A stretch of 64,000 bases of DNA from an uncultured Polyangiaceae bacterium (GCA_964195975.1 CAXMQZ010000126.1:14985-78984); one strand, 5' to 3'; shown: positions 10,876 through 30,669, counted from the first letter of the stretch. Notes: generated from the letters alone by a model not told the origin. Translations and numbers: made by a program.

Positions 10876-11149
10876 TTCCAGGTTCGATATCGTGAAGGCT
10901 GCACTACGACGATAGGGCGTATTCTACTCATATAGCTGAAAAATGCAGTCAAATTCTCCACGGACCCTCACGGTAGCTTCAACAGGTGCGTCAGAGGGCC
11001 CTTCAAAAGAGTAGACTCCTGCGGTGTTTTCCGGCCACCAATCGCCCAAGACGGTTTCTCGAGATTTGTTCCCACCCGAGCGGGTGGCGCAAAAAAAAGT
11101 CGGTGTAACTATCCTGCCCGGGATACATTTTCAGCTACGGAGAAATCTC

Positions 11150-13366: not shown

Positions 13367-13604
13367 TGTGAGCTCCTTTTGTTCAATCTTCAGGATTAAC
13401 GCGTCCGACGGCTGTGAACCAGTTCACACTCCCACGCGTCCTTCACTCTAGAACTGCAATCCACGGGCCAAAAACTCGATCGGTTAGCCCAACCCGCGCC
13501 GGCTCAAAGGACTTCTCATCGACACCGATCCGGTAAGATCCTCCAGAACCACAGAGCGATCCAAGCGTATGACTATGTGGTAGCCGTGGAGGGATCAACC
13601 ATCT

Positions 13605-14768
13605 ATGTGGAACCGACTGGGAACGAGCCTCGCAGCAATTCTGATTGCGGCCCTACTGTCAGGGTCGAACTTGTCCTGCAACCGAGCCGAGCAATCGAAC
13701 GCCGAATCTGGTGACGGAACCTCTTCGAAAACCGAGAAGCCGGAAAAGAAAAAAAAGTTCTGGGGCAAGAACTCTGAACCTGTCGAAAAGGAAGAAGATC
13801 AGTCTGTCCCGGTCGAGATCACCGAGTTGAGCCGCGGACGGATCGAATCGATTCTCCGTTTTTCGACAAATCTCGAGGCCGAGAACGAAGTTCAGGTCAT
13901 CTCCGAGGCTGCCAGGAAGATTCGCAGCCTTCTGGTCGAGGAGGGCGACGATGTTCGGCAGAACCAGGTCCTGATCCGTCTCCAGGACGAAGAACAGCGC
14001 AACGAGATCGCTCGGGTCGAGAGCCAGCTGGCGAATGCTCGTCGCGAATACGAGCGCCGAACCAATCTCTATGGTCAACAGTTGATCAGCGAGCAAGAGT
14101 ACAACCAAGCGACCTACGATCTCGAGCAGTTCGAGATCGCCCTCAAGGACGCTCAGCGTCAATTGAGCTACACCGAAGTACGGGCGCCGATCAGCGGCAC
14201 CATCACGCAGCGAATGATCAACATAGGTGATCAGATCAGTGTCAATCAGCACCTCTTCGACATCGTCGACTTCGACTCGATCGTCGCTCGTATCTACGTG
14301 CCGGAGAAGGAGCTTTACCGAATACGGCCCGGGCAGAGCGCGAGAATTTTCGCCGACGCGGCAAGCGGTGAAGAGCGGTTTGGAAGCATCGACCGAATTG
14401 CGCCGCGCGTTGACCCCCGTAGCGGGACGATCAAGGTGACCGTCTCCATCCCTCGCAGTCAGGGCCTGCTGCCCGGGATGTACGTAACGGCAGAGTTGAT
14501 TACCGAGGTCCATGAAGATGCTCTCCTACTACCCAAGAGGGCGATCGTTTACGATGCCGATCAGATTTTTGTGTTCCGCCTAAAAGACGACTCTACGGTG
14601 GAACGCTTGCTGATCCGGCCAGCCCTCCAGGACCGCGACAACGTCGAGCCCGCTGGCACCCTCAACGAAGGCGACCGCATCGTCATTGCCGGACAAGCGA
14701 GTCTCAAAGACGGCTCAGAAGTCAGGATCGTGGGTGGTACTGCCCCGGTTGAAACAGCCTCCAACTAA
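13605..14768 (+). CDS. Efflux RND transporter periplasmic adaptor subunit (HlyD/MdtA-like)
   Basis: It has a coiled-coil hairpin and the beta-barrel motif EVRAPISGTIT. Its stop lies 3 nt before the RND permease start. Confidence 0.85.
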   Translation: MWNRLGTSLAAILIAALLSGSNLSCNRAEQSNAESGDGTSSKTEKPEKKKKFWGKNSEPVEKEEDQSVPVEITELSRGRIESILRFSTNLEAENEVQVISEAARKIRSLLVEEGDDVRQNQVLIRLQDEEQRNEIARVESQLANARREYERRTNLYGQQLISEQEYNQATYDLEQFEIALKDAQRQLSYTEVRAPISGTITQRMINIGDQISVNQHLFDIVDFDSIVARIYVPEKELYRIRPGQSARIFADAASGEERFGSIDRIAPRVDPRSGTIKVTVSIPRSQGLLPGMYVTAELITEVHEDALLLPKRAIVYDADQIFVFRLKDDSTVERLLIRPALQDRDNVEPAGTLNEGDRIVIAGQASLKDGSEVRIVGGTAPVETASN

Positions 14769-14770
14769 GC

Positions 14771-17700
14771 ATGGCTGACCTGTCCAGCTTCACGACTCGC
14801 CGTCCAGTGGCCATCACCATGGTCTTCGTGGCGGCTGTAGTGTTCGGTTTCTTTTCGTACGGTCGTTTGCCCGTCAATTTGATGCCGGAGCTCTCCTACC
14901 CCACCCTCACCGTACGCACGGAGTATCCGGGCACAGCACCCGAGGAAGTCGAAAATGACATAAGTCGACCGGTCGAGGAGGCTCTCGGTGTCGTAGGGGG
15001 GCTTCGCCGCGTCAGCAGCATCAGCCGTGCGGGTGTCAGCGATGTCGTTCTCGAATTCACCTGGGACACGTCGATGTCGCAAGCTATTCAGGATTCGCTC
15101 GAGAAGCTCGACCTGATCCTCCTGCCCGACGACGCCGAGCGACCGCTGATTTTGCGATTCGATCCGTCGCTGGACCCGGTGATGGAACTGAGTCTCTCGG
15201 GCGTTGGAGATCGGTACGAGGGTGAGGAGGGCCTACGTAGGCTACGGCGAATCGCCGACCTTCAGCTCAAACGAGCTCTCGAGCCGATCAAGGGCGTAGC
15301 TGCGGTGCGAATCCGGGGTGGCCTGGAAGAGGAGATCCATGTCCTGTTGGACGAGTACGAGCTCCGTCGCACCGATCTGGATATCCAAATCGTGATCGAT
15401 CGCCTGGCCCAGGAGAACATCAACATGGCTGGCGGAACACTTACCGAGGGGCGAACCGAGTACATGGTTCGCACGTTGAACGAGTACGAAAATCTCGAAG
15501 AGATCGAACGAACTGTTGTCGCACGCTTTGAAGATCGAGACGTTCGAATCGGTCAGATCGGAAGCGTGGTAAGAGCTCACAAAGAACGCGAAATTCTGAC
15601 TCGCACAAACGGTCACGAGAGTGTCCAGATCGACATATTCAAGGAGGCCGACGCCAACATCGTGGCCCTGGCGAAAAGAGTCAAGGCCGAGCTTGGCGAC
15701 TTCGACCTGGAAGAGGCCAGGAGTCAAGCTGGACTGAGCCTCGAGGAGAAGAAGGCACTAGAAGCCGAGAAAACGATCGCTGAAAAGAAGGCCTGGTGGC
15801 AGCGGCTGCGTAGGCAAAAAGCGGAAAAGCCACAGGGTCTGATCGAGCAGACCTGGATCAATGAGGGAGCCGACTTGGCCTTGGTCGCGGACCGTTCACT
15901 GTTTATCGAGAGCAGTATTACCGAGGTGCGCAATACGGCCATTCTGGGAGGTCTCCTTGCGGTGCTGGTGCTCTACTTTTTCCTGATGGATCTTCGCACC
16001 ACCGCGATCATTGCAGTGAGTATTCCGATATCTCTACTGGTTACATTCGCACCGCTCAACATGCTCGGTGTCAGTCTGAACATCATGTCTCTTGGGGGGT
16101 TGGCTCTTGGCATCGGAATGTTGGTCGATTCCTCGATCGTTGTTCTCGAGTCGATTTTCAGATGCCGCCAGGAGGGAGACAGTCTGGAAACCGCTGCCAA
16201 TCGTGGAACACAGGAAGTCCGCGGTGCGGTGATCGCTTCCACGATGACCACCATCGCTGTTTTTTTCCCAATGGTCTTTGTCGAGGGGGTGGCGGGCCAA
16301 GCATTCGGAGATCTCGGCTTAGCGGTGGTGATCTCGCTAATGGCATCGCTGGCTGTGGCCCTGTTCCTGATCCCGATGCTGGCCAGTAGAGAGGGCTTGA
16401 CCTGGACCGAGTCAGCTCCCATCGAAACTCATTGGGGAGAATTCACGGCCTGGCGCACCTTCCAAAACGACTGGATCGACTACTACAAGGTTCTTGGCTC
16501 CAGCAGTGGAGCCGGCAAGGCATTTCGCGTCATCGGATACCCGCTGGTGGCGGTCTACTTTTGTCTTCGCTTCTTGCTTGGGGCGATCTTCGAAACAGCT
16601 GGCAAAATCCTGCTCGCCGTTCTGCGAGCGATCCTATGGCTGACGCAGACGATCATTTTGCCAATGCTCCGGCGGATTCTTGGTGTCGTCATGATCCTGC
16701 CGCTAAAAGCGACCCAGTGGCTGCTCGATACCCTCCACAATATCTACCCACCAGCTCTTCGCTGGGCGCTGCGCAATCCATTGGCAATCTTTGTTTTGAC
16801 CATCGGTTGTTTTGTGCTCACCGGCTGGGCGGTGGCATCCCTCGACAGCGAGCTGCTTCCAGAGGTTCATCAGGGTGAGTTCACGGTCGAGATTGCATTG
16901 CCGGTCGGAACCCCGATCGAGTCGACCGAGACCATCGTGGCGCCAGTCGAAGCCGCAATCCTGGCTGAACGAGAGCACATCGAGGGGTTGGTTCTGACCG
17001 TCGGCTACGACGCAGCTTTTTCCAACCGCTCGGATGAAGGCGAGCATACAGCGCGGTTCAAGGTTCTTCTCGACCGAGCCGACCCACGAGTCGAACAACG
17101 AGTCATCAGACGCCTGCGACACAGGTTTGCCCAGATCCCCGATCTCAACGCCCGCATCTCGAGACCGGTTCTGTTCAGCTTCAAGGCACCGATCGAGATC
17201 GAGGTTCACGGGGACAACCTGATTCAGCTCAGACAGCAGGCACAGATCGTCGAGGAGACGATGGCGACCTTGCCCCAGTTGGCGGATGTCGAGTCGACCC
17301 AGCGCCGAGGAGCACCCGAGGTCCAGATCGTCTATAACCGAGATCTACTAGCCCGCTACCATCTGAATCCGGGACAAGTAGCTCGTCTCGTACGCGACAA
17401 GGTTCAAGGTTTTGAAGCCACTCGCTTCAATTTGAAGGATCGTCGGATTCCGATCGTTGTTCGACTCCAAATGCTCGACCGTGAGAGCGTCGAAGATGTC
17501 CGTGACCTGATCATCAATCCGGGCGGAGAAAAACCGATCCCGTTATCTGCCGTGGCTACGGTCGAGCTCGCCGAGGGCCCAAGCGAGGTACGTAGAGTCG
17601 ATGGCCGCAGAGTCGCATTGGTCAGTGCCAACATCGCTGACGGATCGTTGGGCAGTGCGGTGGATGCGATTCGAGACGAGCTCGATGCCCTTAGCTGGCC

Positions 17701-18307
17701 AACAGGGACAGCCTTTTTTGTCGCCGGCCAAAACGAGGAGTGGGAGAACAGCCAGGGCAGCCTGATGCTGGCCCTGGCACTGTCGATTTTTCTGGTCTAC
17801 GTAATCATGGCAGCCCAGTTCGAGTCCCTTTGGCATCCCCTGGTCATCCTCTTCACAATACCGCTGGCCTTTTTTGGCACCGTGTTTACCTTGAAAGCGC
17901 TAAACATCAGCCTGTCGATTGTCGTATTCCTGGGGATGATCATGTTGGCCGGCATCGTGGTAAACAACGCCATCGTGCTGGTGGACTACATCAATATTCT
18001 CCGGCGGCGAGGAATGGAGACTGAAGAAGCTGTCGTGACTGCTGGAACGGTGCGCCTTCGCCCAATCCTCATGACGACTGCAACAACCACATTGGGTCTG
18101 CTGCCCATGGCGGTTGGGGTCGGCGACGGCGCCGAGTTGAGAACGCCGATGGCGGTCGCTGTAATCAGTGGTCTCTTGGTGTCGACTCTTCTGACGTTGA
18201 TCATTATTCCTTCGATCTACACCGAGATCGACCGCTTGAAATCCCGAGCTTTGGGGCAAGAATCACCCGCACCGCCCCAACCGGCTCCTTCGGAAGTCGG
18301 CTACTAG
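14771..18307 (+). CDS. RND efflux permease 1 (AcrB/MdtB-like). At 1178 aa it is longer than typical RND permeases because of two insertions.
   Basis: It has the 12-TM RND architecture with two large periplasmic loops. An extra hydrophobic insertion lies between TM6 and TM7. Confidence 0.9.
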   Translation: MADLSSFTTRRPVAITMVFVAAVVFGFFSYGRLPVNLMPELSYPTLTVRTEYPGTAPEEVENDISRPVEEALGVVGGLRRVSSISRAGVSDVVLEFTWDTSMSQAIQDSLEKLDLILLPDDAERPLILRFDPSLDPVMELSLSGVGDRYEGEEGLRRLRRIADLQLKRALEPIKGVAAVRIRGGLEEEIHVLLDEYELRRTDLDIQIVIDRLAQENINMAGGTLTEGRTEYMVRTLNEYENLEEIERTVVARFEDRDVRIGQIGSVVRAHKEREILTRTNGHESVQIDIFKEADANIVALAKRVKAELGDFDLEEARSQAGLSLEEKKALEAEKTIAEKKAWWQRLRRQKAEKPQGLIEQTWINEGADLALVADRSLFIESSITEVRNTAILGGLLAVLVLYFFLMDLRTTAIIAVSIPISLLVTFAPLNMLGVSLNIMSLGGLALGIGMLVDSSIVVLESIFRCRQEGDSLETAANRGTQEVRGAVIASTMTTIAVFFPMVFVEGVAGQAFGDLGLAVVISLMASLAVALFLIPMLASREGLTWTESAPIETHWGEFTAWRTFQNDWIDYYKVLGSSSGAGKAFRVIGYPLVAVYFCLRFLLGAIFETAGKILLAVLRAILWLTQTIILPMLRRILGVVMILPLKATQWLLDTLHNIYPPALRWALRNPLAIFVLTIGCFVLTGWAVASLDSELLPEVHQGEFTVEIALPVGTPIESTETIVAPVEAAILAEREHIEGLVLTVGYDAAFSNRSDEGEHTARFKVLLDRADPRVEQRVIRRLRHRFAQIPDLNARISRPVLFSFKAPIEIEVHGDNLIQLRQQAQIVEETMATLPQLADVESTQRRGAPEVQIVYNRDLLARYHLNPGQVARLVRDKVQGFEATRFNLKDRRIPIVVRLQMLDRESVEDVRDLIINPGGEKPIPLSAVATVELAEGPSEVRRVDGRRVALVSANIADGSLGSAVDAIRDELDALSWPTGTAFFVAGQNEEWENSQGSLMLALALSIFLVYVIMAAQFESLWHPLVILFTIPLAFFGTVFTLKALNISLSIVVFLGMIMLAGIVVNNAIVLVDYINILRRRGMETEEAVVTAGTVRLRPILMTTATTTLGLLPMAVGVGDGAELRTPMAVAVISGLLVSTLLTLIIIPSIYTEIDRLKSRALGQESPAPPQPAPSEVGY

Positions 18308-18325
18308 AAGAAGAGATTGCACCGC

Positions 18326-21300
18326 ATGAACTCTGACAACGACCAGAACACCAACATCCCGGAGACCACTGAGCGGGAATCTCGTCTGCCACGTTTTTCC
18401 CTAGACCGCAGGATCACGGTAATGATGATCCTGCTCACCCTGGTCGTACTAGGCACGGTCGCGACGATCAGTATTCCGATCGAGCTGTTTCCTTCAGGTT
18501 TTCAAGGCCCCAATCTACAGGTCCAGGTGCCATGGCGAGACGCTCCCTCCAAGGAGGTGCTCGACAAGATCGTGCTGCCTCTCGAGGAAGAGCTCTCTAC
18601 CGTAGCCGGCGTCGACAAGCTCAACTCCTACGCTCGGACCGGGTTTGGAATGTGCACTCTCACATTCAAACAGGGTACGGATCTCGACGTCGCCTACCGA
18701 GAGGTCAGGGACCGGGTCGAACGAGCCCGAATACAGATGCCCGACGATGTCGAGCAGGTCTTCATCCACCAGGAGGACGCCTCAGGTCTCCCGATCTTCT
18801 TTCTTGGTCTCGCTATCGACCCGGCAGTCGTCGATGTTTACAACCTGATTCAAGACGAGATCATCATGCCGCTCAATCGAATCGACGGTGTTGCCTCGAT
18901 CGAAGGGCACGGCTTGGAGGAGAAGGAAATCCTGATCGAGCTCGATCGCGAGCGAACGGCGGCATCCGGCCTGAACATTTACGACCTGGCGCAGCAACTC
19001 TCCGGCGACAACTTCACTCTTTCCAGTGGCAACGTTCGTCACGGGGGCAAGAAGCTACTACTTCGCTCAGTCGCACGGTATGACAGTGTCGAAGAGCTCG
19101 AAAATCGCCTGGTCTCACCCAATATCCGACTGCGCGATATCGCGACGATTCGCTATGACCTTCCCGAGGTCACCTATCGAGTTCGAGCCATGAGCCGGCC
19201 GGCAATCGCTCTGGCGGTGATGAAAGAGGGCGATGCAAATACACTCGAGGTCGCCCGCAGAGTCAACGCCGTAGTCGACGAGCTCCGAGAGAATCCGCGG
19301 CTCCAGCTGATCGAGATAGCCACCCTCTTCGACCAGGGAGAGGTCATCATGGAGTCTCTGAGCACGTTGATGGCGAGCGGCCGCGTAGGCGGCATCATCG
19401 CGCTTCTCGTTCTGCTGTTTTTCCTACGGCGATTCCGCATGACCCTGATCGTCACGTTGTCGATCCCGATCAGCATCGTAGTCGCCTTGACCGTGATGTA
19501 CTTTGCGGGCGAATCGCTAAACATCCTGACCCTTCTTGCCCTGATGATCTCTGTAGGTCTACTGGTAGACAACTCGGTCGTTGTAGCAGAGAACATCTTC
19601 CGGCTCCATCGTGCGGGATTGTCACGTCGTCAAGCCTGCATCAAGGGCGCCGGTGAGATCGCCCTGGCGATCATCATGGCCACTCTGACGACCATCATCG
19701 TGTTTCTTCCGGTATCGCTGGTCGAGGGCAAGGCTCAGTTTTTTCTGCTGCGTCTGTCCATACCGATCTCGATCTCGCTTTTGGGCTCACTTCTGGTCGC
19801 TTTGATATTTATCCCACTGTTCGTCTATTTGACCCTTCCACATAAGGGGTCAAACGGTGGCGACGAGAAATCTCACCCGTTTTTCGACTGGCTCAAGAAG
19901 GCGTACGACCTGACTTTTGGCAAGCTCAACCAGGCCTACACCCGGATGTTGGCCTTCTTCTTGAGCCACCGTCTCGACCTGGTGCTGATACTCGCTGCGA
20001 TATTCGCTGTGACTTCGGTTTTTGTTTTCAAGCAGGTGAAGTTTGTCGAAGCCCAGGAAGAGGAGCGAGGTGGTTTCGAGATCAACGTGACTTTGCCCCA
20101 AAACACGACCCTGGAGGAAGCCGAGGAGTTCTTTCTTATCGGAGAAAAGATCATCGAGGAGCGCGCCGAAGAACTCGACCTGGATGGTTGGTTTATTCAG
20201 CATCGAAGTACCTATGGATCGCTCCAGGGTTGGTTCAAACGACCTCGAACCAACAAGGTAACGCCGCGCAAGGCCAATAAGATCGTCATGGATGCGATTC
20301 CAGAAAAGGCTGGTGTGCGACTGTTTACCGAGATGGATCAGCAAGGCGATGATGACAAGAATCTGTCACTCCACACCTTTGTTCTTCAGGGTGATGAGTC
20401 GGATGAGCTCGAACAGGCTGCCGAGAACCTGGAGCCGCTGTTTCTCTCCGTCGATGGCGTGATCGGGATGAAGAAGGTTGCAGAAGATTCTCCGAGTGAG
20501 ATGGCCCTGGTTTTGGATCGCGATCGGATTCAGAGCCAGAACATCAACCCAATGGTCGTCGCAACCGTCGTGGGCTATGCGCTGCGGGGTCAGAACCTGC
20601 CCCGATATCACCGAGATGGCAAGGAGATCCCAGTCGTGGTGCGATTCAAAGAGGAAGACCGAGACAGCCTCGACGAGCTCAATGACTTCTGGATTCCTAC
20701 CAACGACGATGACTTGGTCAAGCTGTCGTCGTTGGCCGAGCCGCGCTACCTCGCCTCGGCCCAGCGAATCTTTCGCAACGACAAACGAACCTCGAGAGAG
20801 ATCACCCTCGAGCTAGAAGAGGGTCGTGAAGAAGAGACGAGAGCTCGGCTTATCGGTCTGTCGAAGCGAATCGAGCTACCCGAAGGGATTTCCTTCAGCC
20901 AAGGAGACAGGAAAGCCGGTCTAAGCGAGGACCTACAAGCGATGTTGTTCGCTGGCCTGGTCTCGATCGTGTTCATTTATCTACTCATGGGGTTCTTGTT
21001 CGAGAGTTTTATCCTGCCGTTGTCGATCATTTTGACGATCCCTCTCGCAAGCCTGGGAGTCTATTGGAGCCACTTCCTGGCCGGCCTCGACATCGACTTC
21101 TTGGGAGCCGTCGGTCTCATCTTGCTGGTCGGTGTCGTGGTCAACAACGGCATCGTTTTGATCGACTATGTCACCAGACTCCGGCACGAAGGACACTCAC
21201 GCACTGAAGCACTGATGCTGGCGGCAGACCGCCGTTTCCGACCGATCATGATGACCGCCATGACGACGATCGGTGGGATGATTCCGCTGACGCTCCGGGG

Positions 21301-21499
21301 CGCTTCGAGCATCGGATTGAGCTACAAGAGCTTCGGTCTTACTCTGATCGGTGGTTTGACAACTGCGACGCTGCTGACCCTGCTGGTCATTCCGGTCTTC
21401 TACACGCTATTCGACGACGCGAGGTCGTCTGTCACCTGTATCGTGCGAAGCGGTCTGCGAAAGACAAAGGTCTCCAAGCCCGCCGAAGAGTCCCCGTAG
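18326..21499 (+). CDS. RND efflux permease 2 (AcrB/MdtC-like)
   Basis: This is a second full-length RND permease placed directly after the first, as in MdtABC. I placed the start at the ATG at 18326; the track ORF begins at the TTG at 18317. Confidence 0.9.
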   Translation: MNSDNDQNTNIPETTERESRLPRFSLDRRITVMMILLTLVVLGTVATISIPIELFPSGFQGPNLQVQVPWRDAPSKEVLDKIVLPLEEELSTVAGVDKLNSYARTGFGMCTLTFKQGTDLDVAYREVRDRVERARIQMPDDVEQVFIHQEDASGLPIFFLGLAIDPAVVDVYNLIQDEIIMPLNRIDGVASIEGHGLEEKEILIELDRERTAASGLNIYDLAQQLSGDNFTLSSGNVRHGGKKLLLRSVARYDSVEELENRLVSPNIRLRDIATIRYDLPEVTYRVRAMSRPAIALAVMKEGDANTLEVARRVNAVVDELRENPRLQLIEIATLFDQGEVIMESLSTLMASGRVGGIIALLVLLFFLRRFRMTLIVTLSIPISIVVALTVMYFAGESLNILTLLALMISVGLLVDNSVVVAENIFRLHRAGLSRRQACIKGAGEIALAIIMATLTTIIVFLPVSLVEGKAQFFLLRLSIPISISLLGSLLVALIFIPLFVYLTLPHKGSNGGDEKSHPFFDWLKKAYDLTFGKLNQAYTRMLAFFLSHRLDLVLILAAIFAVTSVFVFKQVKFVEAQEEERGGFEINVTLPQNTTLEEAEEFFLIGEKIIEERAEELDLDGWFIQHRSTYGSLQGWFKRPRTNKVTPRKANKIVMDAIPEKAGVRLFTEMDQQGDDDKNLSLHTFVLQGDESDELEQAAENLEPLFLSVDGVIGMKKVAEDSPSEMALVLDRDRIQSQNINPMVVATVVGYALRGQNLPRYHRDGKEIPVVVRFKEEDRDSLDELNDFWIPTNDDDLVKLSSLAEPRYLASAQRIFRNDKRTSREITLELEEGREEETRARLIGLSKRIELPEGISFSQGDRKAGLSEDLQAMLFAGLVSIVFIYLLMGFLFESFILPLSIILTIPLASLGVYWSHFLAGLDIDFLGAVGLILLVGVVVNNGIVLIDYVTRLRHEGHSRTEALMLAADRRFRPIMMTAMTTIGGMIPLTLRGASSIGLSYKSFGLTLIGGLTTATLLTLLVIPVFYTLFDDARSSVTCIVRSGLRKTKVSKPAEESP

Positions 21500-21567
21500 T
21501 TCGGCTCATGCGTCGACCCTGATCTGCTTTATTAATGCCGCCGGATCGTCTATAACTGTGCGCCGTC

Positions 21568-22752
21568 ATGTTGGACACGGTCACAGAACCTGCCGCATCT
21601 CTACGCCAGCTTATCGATCAAGGCTCACCAAGCCCCGATGAGATCGATCGGTTCATAGAAGACAACACCTTTCCCCTTCAAGACGGAACGGCCTCCACAT
21701 TTGTCTACCGTGGCGAAGCCGATCGGGTCGAGCTGCACCATTGGGTCCATGGGGCTCCGGGATCACAGCCCTTTGTCAGAATCAAGGGTTCCGACCTGTG
21801 GTACCTCACGCTCGATCTGCCCGAGTTTTCGAGGATCGAATACAAGCTGGAAGTGAACCTGTACGGCCGGAGTCGACTGATTCGCGACCCTCTCAACCCC
21901 CTCGAGGCCCATGATCCTTTTGGTGCCAATTCCGTTTGTCATGGACCGGGCTACGAGACACCGGATTGGACCCTGGATCAACCCGGAGTGCCGCGCGGAG
22001 ACACCGAAATCCTCGAAGTCCAGAGTGACGCTTTTGGGGAGACAAGACTCGTCGACGTCTATCGCCCAGCCAGCCTCGATCCTGCGGGTACTCACCCTCT
22101 GCTCATTGTTCATGACGGCAATGATTTTGTACGCTACTCGAGCCTCCTGACAGTGCTCGACAACCTGATTCACCGCCGACAAATCGCGCCTCTTGTTGCG
22201 GCATTGACCAACTCGTCGCGACGATTGGAGGAGTATGCGGGAGACCCCAGACAGGCTCGATTTCTGACCGATGAGTTGGTGCCGCAGCTATCCCGCCAGT
22301 ACCCGATCAGTGAATCTGCAGACTCGCGAGGTCTACTGGGAGCCAGCTTCGGAGCCGTAGCGTCCCTACATACCGCTTGGCTCTATCCTGGTTTTTTCGG
22401 GCGACTCCTTCTTCAGTCAGGGTCGTTCGCCTTCGCGAAAAGAGACGCTTCTGCCCACAATCGCGAGCTCGAACCGGTGGTCGCATTCCAACGCCTCTTT
22501 CGAACGAGTCCTAGACGACCCAGCGACCGCGTCTATGTCAGCTGCGGTCTTTATGAATCTCTGATAACCGAGAATCGTGCGCTAGTGCCGGTGCTTCGAG
22601 AAACAGGGATGGAGGTTCTCTACACAGAGTCTCGTGACGGTCACAACTGGGAGAATTGGCGTGATCGTTTGCAAGAGGGCCTGTCCTACCTCTTCCCAGG
22701 TCCGGCATCCGACTCCACGAACCGAACCGGTCGCCTATACTCAGACGGCTAG
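21568..22752 (+). CDS. Putative esterase (enterochelin-esterase / esterase-D-like alpha/beta hydrolase with an N-terminal beta-sandwich domain)
   Basis: The LLIVHDGNDF and GASFGAVASL (GxSxG) alpha/beta hydrolase motifs are present. Confidence 0.6.
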   Translation: MLDTVTEPAASLRQLIDQGSPSPDEIDRFIEDNTFPLQDGTASTFVYRGEADRVELHHWVHGAPGSQPFVRIKGSDLWYLTLDLPEFSRIEYKLEVNLYGRSRLIRDPLNPLEAHDPFGANSVCHGPGYETPDWTLDQPGVPRGDTEILEVQSDAFGETRLVDVYRPASLDPAGTHPLLIVHDGNDFVRYSSLLTVLDNLIHRRQIAPLVAALTNSSRRLEEYAGDPRQARFLTDELVPQLSRQYPISESADSRGLLGASFGAVASLHTAWLYPGFFGRLLLQSGSFAFAKRDASAHNRELEPVVAFQRLFRTSPRRPSDRVYVSCGLYESLITENRALVPVLRETGMEVLYTESRDGHNWENWRDRLQEGLSYLFPGPASDSTNRTGRLYSDG

Positions 22753-22765
22753 GAAACGCAGCAAA

Positions 22766-24034
22766 TTGGCAGTCATAAAACGAAAAATCGGTCTCTCGTT
22801 GGGTGCGGATATCTGTTGGCCGATTTGCTTCGAGCAGGTCATTCGCAATCTGGATCTCAAAGTCCAAAGTGGCAACGACGAAATCCAGGTCGAGGTCGAG
22901 CGCCTGACGATCGAACCCTTCAACCTGAGGCAGTCCTGTCGCTACGACGTTGTCGTTGACCGTTTGACTCACTGGTATCACCTGAGCCGGGAGTGGATCA
23001 AAAAGGCGGTCATCATGGATGGCCTCTATGTATTCAACAATCCATGGACGCTCCAATCCATGGAAAAGCACACGTCGTACTGCGCCATGATGAGGCTGGG
23101 TCTTCCCGTTCCCGACACCTGGATGGTTCCACCCAAAGAGTACGAGCCCTTTGGTGATCTCGAGCCGACGCTTCAGCAGTACGCCAGAATGTTCGACCTC
23201 GGTGAAGTCGGCGAGGAGCTCGGTTTCCCCATGTTCATGAAGCCCTACGACGGTGGCGCGTGGGTCGGCGTCAGCAAGATCGACTCGAATGATCAACTGA
23301 GAGCAGCCTATGAGCAAAGTGGCAGCCGGGTGATGCATCTGCAGCGGGCGATCGACCCGCACGATCTATTTGTTCGCTGTCTCGGCGTCGGGCCCCAGGT
23401 AAACATGATCTCCTACGATCCCTCGGCTCCGCTGCATGAGCGCTATCAGGTCGGCTTCGAGGTGGTCGATGGGGAGGAATGGTCGCTGCTTGAAGACATG
23501 GCACTGACGATCAACGGCTTTTTCGGCTGGGATTTCAACTCGTGTGAAGCCTTGCGACAAGACGGGGTCTTTTATCCGATCGATTTCGCCAACGCCTGCC
23601 CCGATTCGCAGGTGACTTCTCTTCATTTTCATTTCCCGTGGCTGATTACCGCGAAAGTCCGCTGGGCTCTGTTTTGTGCCGTTACCGACCGCAAGATGCC
23701 CATGACTCTCGACTGGGACGCCTATTTCGAGATAGCCGATCGTGATCTCCCCTACCGAGAGCGGCTGCGCGAGTACGCATCCATTTCTCGCCAGCGATTC
23801 GAGAGCGACAAATTCGACAGGTTCTGCGCCGACCACCTATCAAATCTGGACGAGGTAGTTTGGGAGTTCTTTGGCACCGAGCAGGCCAAAGAGGCGGTTC
23901 GACTCAAAGTGGAGGCCCTGTTCCCTGGTCATGAAGTGGATGAGTACACCGAACATTTCTGGGGACTCATTCAGTTTTGGCGCAAGACTGAAGCCGACAG
24001 GTTGGAAAAGTCGGAATCGATCACCGGAGAATAG
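22766..24034 (+). CDS. ATP-grasp-fold domain protein (putative amide/peptide ligase)
   Basis: The central region FPMFMKPYDGGAWVGVSKIDS and the later DFANACPD resemble ATP-grasp nucleotide and Mg-binding elements. The start is uncertain: TTG at 22766 (used here), TTG at 22799, and in-frame GTG codons upstream back to 22634 (the 5' end of the track ORF, which then overlaps the esterase). Confidence 0.45.
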   Translation: MAVIKRKIGLSLGADICWPICFEQVIRNLDLKVQSGNDEIQVEVERLTIEPFNLRQSCRYDVVVDRLTHWYHLSREWIKKAVIMDGLYVFNNPWTLQSMEKHTSYCAMMRLGLPVPDTWMVPPKEYEPFGDLEPTLQQYARMFDLGEVGEELGFPMFMKPYDGGAWVGVSKIDSNDQLRAAYEQSGSRVMHLQRAIDPHDLFVRCLGVGPQVNMISYDPSAPLHERYQVGFEVVDGEEWSLLEDMALTINGFFGWDFNSCEALRQDGVFYPIDFANACPDSQVTSLHFHFPWLITAKVRWALFCAVTDRKMPMTLDWDAYFEIADRDLPYRERLREYASISRQRFESDKFDRFCADHLSNLDEVVWEFFGTEQAKEAVRLKVEALFPGHEVDEYTEHFWGLIQFWRKTEADRLEKSESITGE

Positions 24035-24036
24035 GT

Positions 24037-24765
24037 GTGAAGGACGGTTCGAGTTGGTACTCCGAGCGGCTGCAGCAGCAAATGCGAGTCGTACGCTGGG
24101 GACACTACGGCACCCCAGTCCTACTTTTCCCCACGGCTGGCGGTGATGCAGAGGAGTGCGAGCGCTTTGAAATGATCGAGGCGCTTGAACCCTTGATCAC
24201 CGAAGGCAAAATCAAGGTCTACTCCGTCGACAGCATCGCAGGGGCTGCCTGGGTCTCGGACCATCATGGCCCTCTGCACTGTGCCTGGCTACAAAACCAG
24301 TTCGACGCCGCGATCTACCATGAGGTGGTTCCCTCTATCCGAATGGACTGCCAAGATCCACGAATCGAGATCGTCGCCGCCGGAGCCTCGGTGGGCGCTT
24401 TCAACTCGGTCGCTTCGGTCTGCCGCCATCCCGATGTCTTTTCAGGCGCAATCGCCATGAGCGGCACCTATGATCTGACCGAGTGGCTCCATGGCGAGTG
24501 GAGCGACGACTTCTATTACTCTTCCCCGATTCACTATCTGCCAGGTCTTGAAGAGGGCGAACAGCTGCACCGCCTGCGCCAGCGGTTCATCTTTCTTCCG
24601 ACAGGAGAAGGCCGGTGGGAGGACCCTCAGCAGTCGTGGCGAATGGCCGAAGTTCTCGGTTCGAAAGGCATCCCCAATCGAGTCGAGTCATGGGGTCCGG
24701 AATGGGATCATGACTGGCCGACCTGGCGAGTCATGCTGCCCAAGTATCTTGCCGAGCTAGCCTAG
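24037..24765 (+). CDS. Esterase-family alpha/beta hydrolase
   Basis: It has VLLFPTAGGD and the serine-nucleophile motif GASVGAFNS. It lies 2 nt downstream of the ATP-grasp gene. Confidence 0.55.
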   Translation: MKDGSSWYSERLQQQMRVVRWGHYGTPVLLFPTAGGDAEECERFEMIEALEPLITEGKIKVYSVDSIAGAAWVSDHHGPLHCAWLQNQFDAAIYHEVVPSIRMDCQDPRIEIVAAGASVGAFNSVASVCRHPDVFSGAIAMSGTYDLTEWLHGEWSDDFYYSSPIHYLPGLEEGEQLHRLRQRFIFLPTGEGRWEDPQQSWRMAEVLGSKGIPNRVESWGPEWDHDWPTWRVMLPKYLAELA

Positions 24766-25728
24766 GAGCCCCAAGGCAAGTACTTGGCTCAACGCATCGA
24801 GACTCAGCCGAGCGCCACTCAAGATCAAAACCACAGTCTTGCCTTCGAAGCGCTGCCTGGACTTCAGAAGAGCCGCGACCGAAAGGGCCGCAGCTCCTTC
24901 GATCAGCAGGTGGTGTTTGGTCAATATCTCGGCGATAGCGTGCACGATCTCGTCTTCCTCGACCAGAATAAAGTCATCGATCACCTCTTGACAGATCGGA
25001 AAGGTCAGCGAGTCGACTTCGATGCCTCCAGCGGTTCCGTCGGCCAGGGTGGGCTGCGAGGCCAGGTCGAGGATCTTGCCAGCCTCGAGGGACTCGTACA
25101 TCACTTTGGAATTGACCGGTTGGCAACCGACAATCTCGATCGAGCTGTCGGCTGCTTTCAGATAGCCAGCGACACCGGCGGCAAGACCACCACCACCGAC
25201 CGGGATGAGCACGGTATCGATCCGCTCGAGCTGGCCTTCGAGCTCCAGACCGATCGTTCCCTGTCCTCCGATAATTTTTTCGTCGTTGTAGGGCGACACA
25301 AAGACTCGACCCGAGTCCTCGGCTACTTGGCGGGCAAAAACCTCGGTTTCGATGCCATCCTTGCCAAAAAACTTCAGCTCAGCGCCATACCGCTCGAGCG
25401 CTCCAATCTTGGCTTTGGACGCCGTCTCGGGTAGATAGATGACACCCGGCCAGCCGAATCTGCGCAGCAGATAGGCGACCGCAGAACCGTGGTTGCCGGA
25501 GGAGGCGGTAACGACACCCTTGGAGCGCTCCTCTTCGCTCAGCGATAGCATCCTGTTCGCCGCACCCCTGAGCTTGAAAGAACTCGTGGCCTGTAAGTTC
25601 TCGAGCTTTAGATAGACTTCGCAGCCCGCCCGATCACCGAGCCAGATCGACTCCTCAACCGGTGTGCGACGAATGTGCTCACGGATCCGCCCTTCCGCCT
25701 CCAGGACCTCTGTACGCACATCGATCAC
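24757..25728 (-). CDS. PLP-dependent threonine/serine dehydratase family enzyme
   Basis: The lysine motif SSFKLRGA and the Gly-rich loop GGGGLAAGVA are present. It is 323 aa. Confidence 0.8.
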   Translation of the reverse strand: MIDVRTEVLEAEGRIREHIRRTPVEESIWLGDRAGCEVYLKLENLQATSSFKLRGAANRMLSLSEEERSKGVVTASSGNHGSAVAYLLRRFGWPGVIYLPETASKAKIGALERYGAELKFFGKDGIETEVFARQVAEDSGRVFVSPYNDEKIIGGQGTIGLELEGQLERIDTVLIPVGGGGLAAGVAGYLKAADSSIEIVGCQPVNSKVMYESLEAGKILDLASQPTLADGTAGGIEVDSLTFPICQEVIDDFILVEEDEIVHAIAEILTKHHLLIEGAAALSVAALLKSRQRFEGKTVVLILSGARLSLDALSQVLALGLLG

Positions 25729-26122
25729 TTCTGTGCCCAGGCTCGAGTTGTGCTTCGAGGGAATCGACGGGCTTGTTCTTCGGATATGGTCAACTGAAGC
25801 TGCTGCTCCTGAGCGGACTCTGTTCGTTTTCGATAGGCAAATTGTATACGGTCACTCACGAGGTCTACCCCCGTGCTTGCGTTCTCGGCGCGGTTACGCT
25901 ATCTTCGCCAACTTGGACATGATCTCGCACAACGGTTTCGCTGGGCGTATGTCCGCACCTCCCAAGAGGCAATTCCCAATCAGCTAGAACTTCTTATCAG
26001 TCAGTATCTGCTTCCCGACTGTTATTCTCGGCAGGGAGGCCTGATTGCCGCGAGAATCGCGGTCCTTTCTTTTCCACGTGTCCGGCGGGTAGAGATTTGT
26101 ACAACCCCGGACCAGGAAAAAC

Positions 26123-27457
26123 ATGAAAGAACACGCACAGGCGCGCCGCGCGCGCGCCCAAGATTCCACACCGCAGTCGCAACCCCAGCTACCGCAGGGC
26201 GTCTTTGGATGCTTGATTCCAGAGCTTCAGCGGGCCGTAGCCGCCGAGGGATACATCACCCCCACACCTATCCAGGAGCAGTGCATTTCGCACCTGCTGA
26301 ATGGACGCGACCTGCTGGGCACCGCCCAGACCGGCACCGGCAAGACTGCGGCATTTATCCTGCCGCTCCTGCAGCGGCTTTCCAAGGACTCCCGACGGCC
26401 CCGGAGAGGAGTCCCCAGGGCCCTCATTCTCGCGCCCACCCGCGAGCTCGCAGCGCAGATCGGCGAGAGCATCCGTACCTATGGACGCTTTCTACACATC
26501 AGGCATACGGTTGTTTTCGGCGGGGTCGGCCAGTTCCCGCAGGTAAACGCCCTGAACCGCGGAGTCGATATCCTCGTGGCCACCCCCGGCCGCCTACTTG
26601 ATTTGATGCAGCAGGGATACATCCACCTCGATGGGGTGGAGGTCTTTATTCTCGATGAGGTGGATCGGATGCTCGATATGGGCTTCCTTCCAGACATCAA
26701 GAGGGTGCTGGCCGCGATTCCGGCCGAGCGACAGACCCTGTTCTTCTCGGCCACTATGGCCCCAAAAATCGAACAGCTGGCCCACACCATGGTCCGCAAC
26801 CCGGTGCGGGTAACCATCGCACCCGACAAACTCGCGGTGGAGCTCATCGCTCAGAAGGTGCTCTTCGTGGGCAAAAAGAACAAGGATGCCCTGTTGATCT
26901 CCCTGATGCGCGACCCCCAGGTCAACAAGGCTCTCATCTTCACCCAGATGAAGCACGTAGCCAATCGGGTAGTGGATAAGCTGGGCGCCGCGGGCATTCA
27001 CGGCGTCGCCATACACGGCAACAAGAGCCAGACTGCGCGAACCAAGGCGCTGGCAGGCTTCAAGCAGGGCCGTGTCCGGGTCTTGGTCGCCACCGATGTG
27101 GCGGCACGAGGGTTGGATGTAGACGACATCACCCACGTGATCAACTACGATCTTCCCGTCGAGGCCGAGACCTACGTGCACCGGATCGGGCGAACCGCCC
27201 GGGCAGGAGCGAACGGCGACGCCATATCACTCTGCAGCGCCGAGGACCGAGCCTATCTGCGGGATATCGAACGCCTGCTAGGCAAGTCGGTACCCGTCGA
27301 GATGGATCACGCCTATCATTGCAACGAGGCCTTCCGGTCTAGCCAGCCCGCTCCAAAGAAGTTCGGTCACGGCAATGGTGGCAAACGGCGGAGCGGACGC
27401 CCCCAGGGCAACTTTCCCCGCGCTCGCAGCAGAAGTCGCAATCGCGGCGGGCGCTGA
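26123..27457 (+). CDS. rhlE: DEAD-box ATP-dependent RNA helicase (RhlE-like) with an Arg-rich C-terminal tail
   Basis: The Q-motif, GTGKTAAF, PTRELA, DEVDRM, SAT and HRIGRTAR motifs are all present. Confidence 0.9.
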   Translation: MKEHAQARRARAQDSTPQSQPQLPQGVFGCLIPELQRAVAAEGYITPTPIQEQCISHLLNGRDLLGTAQTGTGKTAAFILPLLQRLSKDSRRPRRGVPRALILAPTRELAAQIGESIRTYGRFLHIRHTVVFGGVGQFPQVNALNRGVDILVATPGRLLDLMQQGYIHLDGVEVFILDEVDRMLDMGFLPDIKRVLAAIPAERQTLFFSATMAPKIEQLAHTMVRNPVRVTIAPDKLAVELIAQKVLFVGKKNKDALLISLMRDPQVNKALIFTQMKHVANRVVDKLGAAGIHGVAIHGNKSQTARTKALAGFKQGRVRVLVATDVAARGLDVDDITHVINYDLPVEAETYVHRIGRTARAGANGDAISLCSAEDRAYLRDIERLLGKSVPVEMDHAYHCNEAFRSSQPAPKKFGHGNGGKRRSGRPQGNFPRARSRSRNRGGR

Positions 27458-27503: not shown

Positions 27504-29108
27504 TCAGCTTGCCCCGATCTGGTAGACCTTCTCTGGTTCCAAGGCCACTTCTTTCTGCTCGAGCTCCGCGTCATCTAGTTTGGTCAGATCGGCCGCCGCG
27601 CTTTTCATCTCCTGATGTTCGACGGCTCGGGAGACGACCTCGGCGCGGGTCGCGCCCGAGCTCTTGCCGAGAAACGGCTTGACAAGGAGATGAACCACGT
27701 CGCGGGTTGGCATGTGGCGCATGAAACGACCGATCATTCGCAGGGACTGCACCGGGTAGCGCGCCAGTTTGTACCAGAGTAGGCGTTGCAATTCCTCCGA
27801 TCGAATCCGGTGGATCTCCTCGCCGGGTAGTACCGTGGGATCGATCTCGGAGCACTTGTAGTACTTGTACCAGTCCTTGGAATCGTCCACCAAACCGCGC
27901 TCCAGGTACTCTCCCCACAACGGTGTACCTCGGTAGACGCAGAGCCGATTGAAGCCAAAGCTGTCGATGCGCAATTTGCTGGCAAAGCGGAATGTCTCCC
28001 GCATGTCGTCCTCGGTCTCATCGGGACTGCCCACGACAAAAAACCCGTGCACGATCTCGATTCCGGCCTTCTTTGCTTGATTGACGGCAGTGGCGATCTC
28101 CGCGAGAGTCTGTTTTTTCTTCAGGCGGTCGAGAACCTTTTGGCTCCCACTTTCGATTCCAAACATCAGCGAACGACAACGAGCCTTCGCCATCTTGGGC
28201 AGCATGTCCAGAGAGGGACCCGGATCGACTCGACCCTCACAACCCCATTGGATCTGAATGTCGTTTTCGATCAGGCTGTCGCAGATATCCTCGATGCGTT
28301 TGGGTTGCAGAAGGAAGTGATCGTCTACGAAGTAGACCGCACCGTAGCCAAGCTCCTGGAGGTGTCGAAACTCTCCCAGGACGTGCTCGGCGCTGCGGGA
28401 ACGCCACTTCCCTTCGCTAAATGCCGGAATATCGCAAAAGACACAGGGCCACGGGCATCCGCGCGAGGTCTGCATCGTCGTGTACCGGTCCATGGAGAGC
28501 ACGGCGGGGACATCCAGGGGCATCGACTCGATGAAATCGAGAGGGAGGCTCTCGCGATCGGGATAGGGCCACTGATCGAGATCGTGATCGATCGGCCGCG
28601 GCGGATTGCTAATCACCGTGCCGTTTTTGTCGGACCAGGTCAAACCGGTGACATTCTCGGGGCAATCGAGGTTTTCGAGCAGGTCGAGGATCAGCTGCTC
28701 ACCGTCTCCCCGGCCAACGAAATCGACCTCGGGGCACTGTTTCTTGACGCGCTCGGCGTTGAGAGTGGCAAAAACCCCTCCAAAAGCCAGTGGGATTTCG
28801 GGGGATTCGCGTCGAAGAAGACGTGCCAGAACTTTGGCGTAGGGATAGGAAGTAGTGGACAGGAAGCTCAGCCCTACGAGGTCGGGCTGGATCCGTCGGA
28901 TCTCCTCGACGATGTGCTCGTCCGGCGTATCGGGATTCGCTTGGTCGAACATGGTGCACTCGTGCCCTTCCCGCTTGAGCACTGCTGACAGCGTCATGAT
29001 GCCGATAGGTGGAAAGCCGATGATCTGGGGTAGGTCTCGGATGGACCGCTTGTCGGCTTGGAAGGCGTAGAACTGGGGGTCACGGATGTATATTAGAACG
29101 ACGTGCAC
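27504..29108 (-). CDS. B12-binding radical SAM enzyme (class B)
   Basis: It has an N-terminal cobalamin-binding Rossmann domain and the CPWPCVFC (Cx3Cx2C) radical SAM motif. It is 534 aa. Confidence 0.85.
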   Translation of the reverse strand: MHVVLIYIRDPQFYAFQADKRSIRDLPQIIGFPPIGIMTLSAVLKREGHECTMFDQANPDTPDEHIVEEIRRIQPDLVGLSFLSTTSYPYAKVLARLLRRESPEIPLAFGGVFATLNAERVKKQCPEVDFVGRGDGEQLILDLLENLDCPENVTGLTWSDKNGTVISNPPRPIDHDLDQWPYPDRESLPLDFIESMPLDVPAVLSMDRYTTMQTSRGCPWPCVFCDIPAFSEGKWRSRSAEHVLGEFRHLQELGYGAVYFVDDHFLLQPKRIEDICDSLIENDIQIQWGCEGRVDPGPSLDMLPKMAKARCRSLMFGIESGSQKVLDRLKKKQTLAEIATAVNQAKKAGIEIVHGFFVVGSPDETEDDMRETFRFASKLRIDSFGFNRLCVYRGTPLWGEYLERGLVDDSKDWYKYYKCSEIDPTVLPGEEIHRIRSEELQRLLWYKLARYPVQSLRMIGRFMRHMPTRDVVHLLVKPFLGKSSGATRAEVVSRAVEHQEMKSAAADLTKLDDAELEQKEVALEPEKVYQIGAS

Positions 29109-29217: not shown

Positions 29218-30669
29218 ATGGAATTGTTCATGTCACACCTTCCGCCCAGCAAGAGACTGCCGGCTCTGGTAGCGGTGATTTCCGTGATCTTGCTGGCCTC
29301 GGGTTGCTCCCGCGAGCATCCGAAGCCGACCGGGCCCAACATCATTCTTGTCTCGATCGACAGCCTGCGGGCCGCCAATCTGGGTGCTTATGGATACGAG
29401 CGGGACACCACGCCCTTTATCGACTCGCTTGCCAATCGGGGCGTTCGCTTCGAGAACACCATCTCGACCACCTCCTGGACGCTACCAGCCCACGCAGCAC
29501 TGTTTACAGGCCTGTACGACTCGACCCACGGTGTTGTGGACAATGGTAGGAAGTTGGCAGAGCGATTCGTGACGCTGGCGGAGCTGCTCCAAGGTCTGGG
29601 CTACGAGACAGCTGGCTTTTTTGGCGGGCCCTATCTACACCCCGTTTTTGGTCTTGACCAGGGTTTCGACCTCTACCAGAGCTGTATGACCACGACGGAA
29701 GACGATGTCTCGGGAAAGCAGATCGAGCGCCAGGCGCGAATGGCCGATGCACCGAGCCACGACGATGTAACTGGGCCGCGGACGGTGAGCGAGGTCGAAA
29801 AGTGGATCGCGGCGGGCGTCGAACAGCCCTACTTCCTCTTCCTGCACCTCTGGGACGTGCATTACGACTACATCCCGCCCCAGGAGCATCTCGACCTCTT
29901 CGACCCTGATTACACCGGTGACCTTACCGGCGAAGACTTTTCCCAGAACAATGCCGTCAACCCCAAGATGGATCCCCGAGATCTGGAGCATCTGATCGCC
30001 CGATACGATGCCGAAATACGTTTTACCGACACCATTCTGAGTCAAATTATCGATGCTTTGGAGGCCGCGTCGATGATGGAGAGGACCCTGGTGGTGGTCA
30101 CAGCCGACCATGGTGAGGAGTTTTTCGAGCATCAGGGCAAGGGGCACCAGCGCACCTTGTTCGATGAGGTCATCCGAGTACCCTTGATATTCTATTGGCC
30201 AGGCAAACTAGTTCCTGGTCAGGTGATCACAGATCAGGTGCGGTTGATCGACCTTCTTCCCACCCTGGTACGGATCGCCGGCTACGAGGGCCCGCTCGAG
30301 ATCCAGGGTCGCGACCTACGCCCACTGCTCGCCGGGGGCGAGATGGCACAGATCCCAGCCCTGTCGGAGCTGCTCGTCGATGGTGGTTCCATGCGAGCGC
30401 TGCGCACCAATGAGGCTAAGGTCATTCGTTGGTCAAATCGATCGATACCCATTCTGTTTCGGCTAGGTGAGGACCCTGTCGAGATCTGGGCGACCGGTCT
30501 TACCGATGAAGCCTTATCGGACCTGACGCCCGAGGAGCGCTTCCTCGTGACCGAGCTGTTGCGGGCAGAATCAGAAGGCCTTCCGATCGACCAAGAAGGG
30601 GACGGCGCTCTAGAGCTGGACCCGGAAATCCGAAAGCGTCTGGAAAGTCTGGGGTACCTCGATGACTAG
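29218..30669 (+). CDS. Sulfatase-like hydrolase/transferase lipoprotein (alkaline-phosphatase superfamily; no canonical C/SxPxR formylglycine motif)
   Basis: It has a lipobox (LASGC), SIDSLRAANLGAYGY and VTADHGEEF metal-binding regions. Confidence 0.7.
   Translation: MELFMSHLPPSKRLPALVAVISVILLASGCSREHPKPTGPNIILVSIDSLRAANLGAYGYERDTTPFIDSLANRGVRFENTISTTSWTLPAHAALFTGLYDSTHGVVDNGRKLAERFVTLAELLQGLGYETAGFFGGPYLHPVFGLDQGFDLYQSCMTTTEDDVSGKQIERQARMADAPSHDDVTGPRTVSEVEKWIAAGVEQPYFLFLHLWDVHYDYIPPQEHLDLFDPDYTGDLTGEDFSQNNAVNPKMDPRDLEHLIARYDAEIRFTDTILSQIIDALEAASMMERTLVVVTADHGEEFFEHQGKGHQRTLFDEVIRVPLIFYWPGKLVPGQVITDQVRLIDLLPTLVRIAGYEGPLEIQGRDLRPLLAGGEMAQIPALSELLVDGGSMRALRTNEAKVIRWSNRSIPILFRLGEDPVEIWATGLTDEALSDLTPEERFLVTELLRAESEGLPIDQEGDGALELDPEIRKRLESLGYLDD

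Follow-up and report, generated by a model that had tools for sequence, protein, structure and literature searches.

A conserved ATP-grasp ligase and two esterase-family hydrolases as the minimal core of an apparently uncharacterised bacterial gene module

Cyanophycin synthetase CphA1, a protein of about 870 residues, consists of an N domain, an ATP-grasp G domain and a Mur-ligase-like M domain, and CphA2 polymerises dipeptides. Elsewhere among ATP-grasp enzymes, RimK modifies ribosomal protein S6, LysX and ArgX act on LysW, and VanA and MdnC form ester bonds; bacterial glutathione synthetase belongs to the same structural branch as RimK and Ddl. The known clusters of L-amino-acid ligases (LALs) make antibiotics in narrow taxa. 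On the hydrolase side, family PF00756 includes carbohydrate esterases and S-formylglutathione hydrolases. Here we describe a triad of genes, e1, G and e2, which encode an esterase, an ATP-grasp ligase (G, distinct from the CphA1 domain of that letter) and a second esterase-family hydrolase. The triad lies in a window of 64,000 nucleotides, the whole stretch analysed, from an uncultured Polyangiaceae bacterium (GCA_964195975.1 CAXMQZ010000126.1:14985-78984). It is the minimal core of a conserved, apparently cytoplasmic ligase/hydrolase module that appears to be uncharacterised and widespread in at least eight bacterial phyla, and that is closest to cyanophycin metabolism in logic and to RimK and LysX in fold.

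The e1-G-e2 locus and its products

The three genes are intact and lie on the plus strand. The e1 gene (21568-22752) encodes a Fes-like serine esterase of family PF00756 with 394 amino acids (aa), G (22766-24034, within an open reading frame [ORF] spanning 22634-24034) encodes a 422-aa ATP-grasp ligase, and e2 (24037-24765) encodes a 242-aa single-domain serine hydrolase of the PF00756 type, its GTG start lying 2 nt past the G stop codon. Alignment of G with its homologues revealed that 20 of 20 sequences start with MAxxT(R/K)xIGLSLGAD, their first residue matching the TTG at 22766, and the exact 422-aa product from this codon is present in a public protein collection, where it comes from an 83-kb NCBI contig. 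The start of G is therefore placed at TTG 22766, giving gaps of 13 nt between e1 and G and 2 nt between G and e2, in agreement with the initial annotation, which had taken the same start and had described three plus-strand genes separated by 13 nt or less. The upstream GTG at 22634, of the kind kept in that annotation as an alternative that would make G overlap the esterase, is ruled out by the same alignment and exact match. A Shine-Dalgarno-like AGGAAA at 22751-22756, a ribosome-binding-like site read from the sequence of the e1-G junction (22751-22765, plus strand), is located about 10 nt 5' of the TTG start and overlaps the e1 stop codon (TAG, 22750-22752). The three genes are probably translationally coupled.

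A first AF2 model of G, built from 20 near-identical sequences, reached a predicted local distance difference test score (pLDDT) of 66.5; the final alignment, to which divergent relatives were added, gave an AlphaFold model with a pLDDT of 93.8 and a predicted template modelling score (pTM) of 0.92. Comparison of this model with the PDB by Foldseek yielded 442 matches at E<=1e-3, the top 50 of which are all ATP-grasp enzymes. The best match is ArgX (3vpc, E 8e-12, TMt 0.74), and others include LysX/ArgX (5k2m), RimK with S6 (5zk6, TMt 0.73), Ddl, VanA and MdnC. The predicted structure comprises an ATP-grasp portion of the RimK/LysX/Ddl type (residues 1 to about 282) and an all-helical domain that is specific to the family (residues 283-421). 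Searches of Pfam with the isolated N- and C-terminal domains gave no match, and the helical domain has no detectable relatives. The ATP-grasp residues E100-K101 (in MEKHT), K159 (in FMKPYDGG) and Q193 are conserved, as are D256, N258 and E261 together with D273 and N276 (in IDFAN), so that the second Mg motif reads DxxN versus the usual ExN; by analogy with Ddl, these positions would supply the ATP-binding lysines and the Mg ligands. Since these diagnostic residues are invariant or nearly so over 56-85 sequences, including relatives that are only 29-36% identical, G should be catalytically active. Overall, the model shows G as an intact ATP-grasp enzyme of the RimK/LysX/Ddl structural type, consistent with the fold that had been read for the product of 22766-24034 (about 420 aa) from the sequence. 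The number of conserved cysteines in G is high for an enzyme of the cytoplasm: conservation is at least 90% at C17, C260 and C304, and at C278 and C354 it is complete within the main family. These cysteines might form a metal or redox site.

No curated family in Pfam or NCBIfam recognises G at its cut-off, which bears out the earlier view that it belongs to no known family. Its sub-threshold similarities are to Ddl, RimK and LysX only and are confined to the ATP-binding loop: RimK (TIGR00768) scores 21.1 bits versus a cut-off of 143.4, LysX (TIGR02144) 24.2 versus 275.6, TIGR01205 25.3 versus 245.65, and PF07478 23.9 versus 24 while spanning only 40 residues. The RimK, LysX and ArgX enzymes are the best structural matches (E 8e-12 to 1e-9, TMt <=0.74) and share the three-domain core and the Lys/Mg motifs with G. 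However, G scores far below the cut-offs of these families, carries an extra helical domain of about 140 aa, and has other gene neighbours, with no S6- or LysW-like substrate gene nearby. Ddl and VanA account for the only significant sequence similarity (E down to 3.5e-5), located around the ATP-binding loop, but the scores are 18-26 bits versus cut-offs of 243-550 and there is no peptidoglycan gene context.

The hydrolase e1 consists of an N-terminal Ig-like/E-set domain and a PF00756 alpha/beta-hydrolase domain (58.9 bits versus a cut-off of 22, E 8.3e-16). It resembles Fes and the CE1-type feruloyl esterases in this two-domain architecture and in its Ser-His motifs, with Fes as the nearest solved structure (2b20, E 5.9e-15), followed by feruloyl esterases; it also matches PDB esterases deposited as 'Isoamylase N-terminal domain protein'. 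In contrast to Fes, e1 has no siderophore context, and its best NCBIfam model, the enterochelin esterase NF007758, scores 111.1 bits, half the cut-off of 222. The Enterochelin_N match in Pfam is weak (E 2e-4), and the N-domains of 30 homologues match Enterochelin_N (30/30), CBM_20 (9/30) and CBM_48 (4/30), all below threshold. The nucleophile motif GASFG and the catalytic-His motif DGHNW are retained, in the form GAS[FL]G and DGHxW, in all 66 of 66 e1 homologues. The smaller e2 matches PF00756 with 29.6 bits versus 22 and carries GASVG and HDW, with G[AS]S[IVL]G and HDW conserved across 53-54 homologues. Judged from these motifs, e1 and e2 are shown to be intact Ser-His hydrolases, in line with the enterochelin-esterase-like and second esterase-family products that had been annotated on either side of G. 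No obvious signal peptide was seen in the translations of the module proteins, which appear to be cytoplasmic.

A larger module across bacterial phyla

A word-indexed search recovered 7085 homologues of G, and identity is 67% or more for each of the best 120. When 1.84 billion representatives were searched exhaustively with a profile, 313 clusters were obtained at E<=1e-30; the relatives form one tight main cluster and a modest divergent halo. Scanning one genome per species revealed at least 471 carriers, which belong to the Acidobacteriota, Myxococcota, Actinomycetota, Planctomycetota, Gemmatimonadota, Eisenbacteria, Binatia, and Alpha- and Gammaproteobacteria; many are marine or sediment organisms, and cultured ones include Nannocystis punicea FL3 (L028; NZ_CP114040.1, near 12.68 Mb) and Mariniblastus. 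The G proteins of the carriers are 63-75% identical to that of the window, and homologues are 64-85% identical across at least eight phyla, about 67% being typical between phyla. Because this identity is flat and high across phyla, it implies very strong constraint on the protein, and G has probably spread horizontally. The homologues are annotated as 'hypothetical' nearly everywhere, and full-text literature searches, whose coverage did not extend to the amidoligase review of Iyer et al. 2009, returned no description of the G family or the module. Four apparent fusion proteins of G (P0127, P0151, P0262 and P0316) were discarded as frameshift or read-through artefacts and not domain fusions.

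For the comparison of gene order, 82 non-redundant loci were searched by tblastn, the queries being the window proteins together with seed proteins taken from annotated loci; clustering of ORFs was set aside because of long shadow ORFs in high-GC DNA, and tblastn seeds and called genes were used instead. The e1 gene lies immediately 5' of G in 61 of 77 loci with enough flank and e2 immediately 3' of G in 50 of 76, and the full triad is present in 26 of the 53 fully flanked loci. This adjacency is far beyond chance, and the three genes are shown to be co-inherited across phyla. Intergenic gaps in the related loci are mostly below 150 nt, and e2 overlaps the G stop codon by 4 nt in five called-gene loci (L001, L002, L086, L087 and L091). 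The minimal arrangement of the window, with no other module genes within 8 kb, occurs in nine loci, mostly from Actinomycetota and relatives of the window. At 10001-12000 of locus L086, whose G is 83% identical to that of the window, two RND genes are followed directly by G and e2; since e1 is missing there, at least one near lineage either does without it or encodes it at another site.

Analysis of the flanks revealed a larger module, of which the triad is a reduced version and whose commonest complete order is A< S e1 G e2 (GlgA<) B C (< marks reversed genes). The product of the S gene, about 310 aa long, is a relative of the S51 peptidases (PF03575; aligned to PepE DR_1070) and keeps the SAGA nucleophile in 48 of 53 loci and the PH histidine in 41 of 52. 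The order S51-e1-G is found in 47 of 69 loci, and S overlaps e1 by 4 nt in L001, L087 and L088. A, B and C are ATP-grasp proteins of about 405 aa whose closest solved relatives are the L-amino-acid ligases RizA, BacD (YwfE) and BL00235, and they match cyanophycin-synthetase models weakly (1e-8 to 1e-10). The A and/or B ligase is carried by 30 of the 53 fully flanked loci, C accompanies B in about 17, and in seven loci the gene after e2 encodes a GCS2 carboxylate-amine ligase, which often has CBS domains. The known LAL clusters differ from this module, which is conserved across phyla and includes hydrolases and glycogen genes. The initial annotation had proposed the triad itself as a module; the ligase-hydrolase pairing stands, whereas its scope has to be widened to the core of a larger LAL/S51/GCS2/glycogen synthase module. 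PADLOC models of anti-phage defence gave no match for e1, G, e2, S, A or B. In loci that have S-e1-G but lack e2, the gene after G encodes instead a conserved protein of about 1070 aa, which matches nothing in Pfam and is 48-56% identical among the loci (L012, 2965-6138; L017, 9371-12511; L065, 4742-7957; also L014, L019 and L036).

A divergent G subfamily (P0156, P0169 and P0147), 33-36% identical to G, pairs with S51 and lacks the esterases. Its genes lie in a block of the order [HEAT-repeat<][DUF3806<][Peptidase_S51, 464-499 aa][G-like], found at 6768-11230 of L089, 3322-7872 of L093 and 3654-7991 of L096. The S51 protein of this block is homologous to S of the main module (28% identity, E 4e-13). 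Since the ligase-S51 pairing is kept in this subfamily without the esterases, it is the deepest conserved link of the system, and the arrangement is that of cyanophycin synthetase and cyanophycinase; the S51 gene lies directly 5' of the ligase gene in the divergent subfamily and one gene further 5' in the main module. In a Mycobacteriales genome (L095), an intermediate subfamily has the rearranged order G, GCS2, e2, C, B, A, S, e1 together with an S15 peptidase. As side observations, the divergent block of L089 is followed by two Ser/Thr protein kinases, and a HEAT_2 protein is encoded just past e2 in L091 (12032-13021, minus strand).

Glycogen genes are recurrent members of these neighbourhoods. 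In 19 loci from Acidobacteriota, Myxococcota, Binatia and Gemmatimonadota, a canonical glycogen synthase (GlgA; PF08323, with an intact KTGGL motif) is encoded no more than 8 kb from G, and in at least 10 of these its gene is placed between module genes. The order is e2-GlgA<-B-C in Acidobacteriota (L009, L033, L055, L057 and L087), (C<B<)GlgA-A-S-e1-G-e2 in Myxococcota, Binatia and Gemmatimonadota (L035, L051, L056, L076 and L085), and A<GlgA<B-C-S-e1-G-e2 in L091. Other loci are flanked by GlgC, GlgX/GH13-CBM48, MalQ or a 1136-aa amylase-family protein. This association is far above chance and its arrangements differ between phyla, while about 70% of loci, and the window, have no nearby glucan gene. 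The embedding among glycogen genes suggests a role in the metabolism of a reserve compound.

Proposed function and alternatives

Our preferred reading, held with something short of even confidence, is that the module may serve the intracellular synthesis and breakdown of an amino-acid oligomer, polymer or conjugate in a cyanophycin-like manner. G would phosphorylate an amino acid or peptide at a carboxylate, forming an acyl-phosphate, and would then link it to an amine (or hydroxyl) on a growing oligomer or polymer derived from amino acids, for which the LAL-type ligases A, B and C would supply di- or oligopeptide building blocks. The S51 protein, where present, would depolymerise the product, and e1 and e2 would finish the breakdown, giving a synthesis/mobilisation pair analogous to cyanophycin synthetase and cyanophycinase with the downstream dipeptidases. 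Esterase-like alpha/beta-hydrolase genes beside cyanophycin genes have been described as candidate dipeptidases (PMC10206079). The likeness to the cyanophycin system lies in an ATP-grasp ligase paired with an S51 protein, further hydrolases adjacent to them, an apparently cytoplasmic location and a storage-like neighbourhood. Of the earlier suggestion that the triad synthesises and turns over an ester- or amide-linked compound, the joint conservation of ligase and hydrolases is confirmed, and the chemistry is still one that we infer from the fold of G and its neighbours.

That dependence on fold and neighbours is one of several points that weigh against the cyanophycin-like reading. No gene of the S51, LAL, GCS2 or glycogen type occurs in the 64-kb window, which makes the polymer model dependent on the relatives; the lineage of the window has the three-gene core only, next to an RND efflux operon, and G is solitary in 3 of the 53 fully flanked loci. 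In comparison to CphA1, G is a stand-alone protein with a unique helical C-domain and has neither the Mur-ligase-like second domain nor the N domain; it is not among the close sequence or structural relatives of CphA, and cyanophycin synthetases are absent from its top 50 Foldseek matches in the PDB. The partners of G are PF00756 esterases and not isoaspartyl dipeptidases, and e1 is nearest to ester-cutting enzymes (Fes and feruloyl esterases), not to peptidases. Because e1 resembles ester hydrolases, and because VanA and MdnC show that the fold makes esters, the bond could be an ester instead of an amide. In addition, a cross-phylum identity of about 67% is unusual for small-molecule ligases, and the substrate could instead be a macromolecule.

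The ester chemistry and the glycogen neighbourhood can be combined in a different scheme, in which G, together with the LALs, would esterify amino acids or short peptides onto the hydroxyls of intracellular alpha-glucan, and e1, docked on the glucan through its starch-binding-like N-domain, would remove them along with e2. The insertion of GlgA between module genes in several phyla, the flanking GlgC, GlgX, MalQ and GH13 genes, the recurrent CBM_20 and CBM_48 matches of e1 and its similarity to the isoamylase-named PDB esterases are consistent with this scheme, as are the ester-forming VanA and MdnC among the structural matches of G and the carbohydrate esterases within PF00756. We nevertheless consider it unlikely: the CBM matches are sub-threshold and Enterochelin_N scores better in all 30 e1 proteins, most loci and the window have no glucan gene nearby, the divergent subfamily pairs with S51 only and has no glycogen link, the clustering with storage genes could mean co-regulation only, and the literature searches turned up no such modification of glycogen. 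A low-molecular-weight peptide product, such as a glutathione-like thiol or a peptide osmolyte, is in our judgement equally doubtful; GCS2, the LALs and G would make it, and e1 and e2 would be (thio)esterases of its acyl derivatives in the manner of S-formylglutathione hydrolase. Such a product would explain the presence of up to five ATP-dependent carboxylate-amine ligases per module, including GCS2 of the glutamate-cysteine-ligase family in seven loci, and would suit both the marine or sediment habitat of many carriers and the kinship of glutathione synthetase and S-formylglutathione hydrolases with G and PF00756, respectively. However, GCS2 occurs in a minority of loci, the top 50 structural matches of G do not include glutathione synthetase, the other ligases are missing from triad-only loci, and two or three dedicated hydrolases per cluster would be unusual for a simple metabolite.

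If the substrate is a protein, a conserved one would receive amino acids from G at its C-terminus or on a side chain, with the hydrolases as erasers. The best structural matches, ArgX/LysX with LysW and RimK with RpsF (TMt 0.73-0.74), point in this direction, the cross-phylum identity would fit recognition of a conserved macromolecule, and a HEAT-repeat protein is encoded repeatedly beside the divergent subfamily and also in L091; but the loci contain no conserved carrier or small-protein gene, the NCBIfam scores for RimK and LysX are 21-24 bits versus cut-offs of 143-276, and the LAL-like partners argue for free amino-acid or peptide chemistry, which makes protein modification quite improbable in our view. 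A cis-encoded LysW-type carrier, like a role of G in graspetide or other ribosomally synthesised and post-translationally modified peptide (RiPP) pathways, is disfavoured because no conserved ORF of 30-160 aa was found in or beside the module in about 90 loci (ORFs below 30 aa were not covered) and the gaps are tiny, mostly below 150 nt and 13 and 2 nt in the window. The graspetide option had been raised in the initial annotation together with a nearby precursor peptide; G would make side-chain lactone or lactam cross-links in a ribosomal precursor that the esterases would process. MdnC-type macrocyclases are indeed among the structural matches of G, and alpha/beta hydrolases occur in some graspetide loci (PMC8939145), but ArgX, RimK and Ddl match G better than MdnC does and the high identity across phyla is unlike that of fast-evolving RiPP loci, leaving this option barely credible. 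A secreted, ester-linked compound handled by the Fes-like esterase, the ligase and the adjacent RND pump is very unlikely too. Such a siderophore or export system would account for the Fes architecture of e1, with Fes as its best PDB match, and for an RND operon that ends 68 nt 5' of e1 with no promoter- or terminator-like site in between, an arrangement common to L002, L073 and L086. Against it, the RND linkage is limited to these close relatives of the window (3 of about 85 loci), e1 scores half of what the enterochelin-esterase model requires, and no catechol, nonribosomal peptide synthetase (NRPS), NRPS-independent siderophore (NIS) or TonB genes were seen in the annotated flanks.

Neighbouring genes and meaning of the module

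The efflux operon 5' of the triad (13605-21499, plus strand) consists of a membrane-fusion protein (MFP) gene (13605-14768, its identity taken from the annotated equivalent in L086) and genes for two RND permeases, one of 1178 aa (14771-18307) and one of 1060 aa (18317-21499). ACR_tran matched the first permease in three separate segments, suggesting that this protein carries an insertion in comparison with the model of about 1020 residues. The order MFP-RND-RND-(e1)-G-e2 is restricted to the lineage of the window, and the pump was rejected as a part of the module. The scan for promoter and terminator patterns that found no site between this operon and e1 gave 28 terminator-like sites over 13000-26500, versus 10.9 +/- 3.7 expected from shuffles; most are inside coding regions, and none is obvious after e2. 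On the other side, the pyridoxal-phosphate (PLP) dehydratase that had been noted as convergent with the triad is present as a PALP-family threonine/serine dehydratase gene (24757-25728, minus strand; NF005292, 419.6 bits versus a cut-off of 371), which shares 9 nt with the 3' end of e2. Its recurrence is confined to close relatives of the window (L002, L073 and L086), in which a kinase gene separates it from e2, and it is a lineage-specific neighbour and not a module member. The intervening gene, at 10050-12725 of L002 and 12019-14805 of L086, encodes a large Ser/Thr kinase fused to a Tricorn/PD40 beta-propeller and is missing in the window. Further downstream lie a DEAD-box helicase gene (26123-27457), a gene for a 534-aa B12-binding radical SAM enzyme (27504-29108, minus strand) and, divergent from the latter, a gene for a 483-aa sulfatase (29218-30669, plus strand), none of which is linked to the module in other genomes. 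At 50539-54337 (minus strand), three ORFs of 811, 164 and 291 aa with mutual 4-nt overlaps resemble, by their layout in the ORF list, a three-subunit molybdenum hydroxylase of the CoxL/S/M type.

With more than 7000 homologues, G is one of the more conserved unnamed bacterial proteins. The module is a candidate for the metabolism of an unrecognised reserve compound, or for a modification of glycogen, in abundant and rarely cultured soil, sediment and marine lineages. It is conceivable, although doubtful, that it makes an unrecognised intracellular reserve or decoration, either a poly(amino acid) or depsipeptide polymer or amino-acid or peptide esters on glycogen. Were such esters to be borne out, they would constitute a new covalent modification of glycogen that ties nitrogen storage to carbon storage across at least eight phyla. 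Identification of the product would annotate thousands of genes and could reveal a new biopolymer; polymers of the cyanophycin type are of industrial interest.

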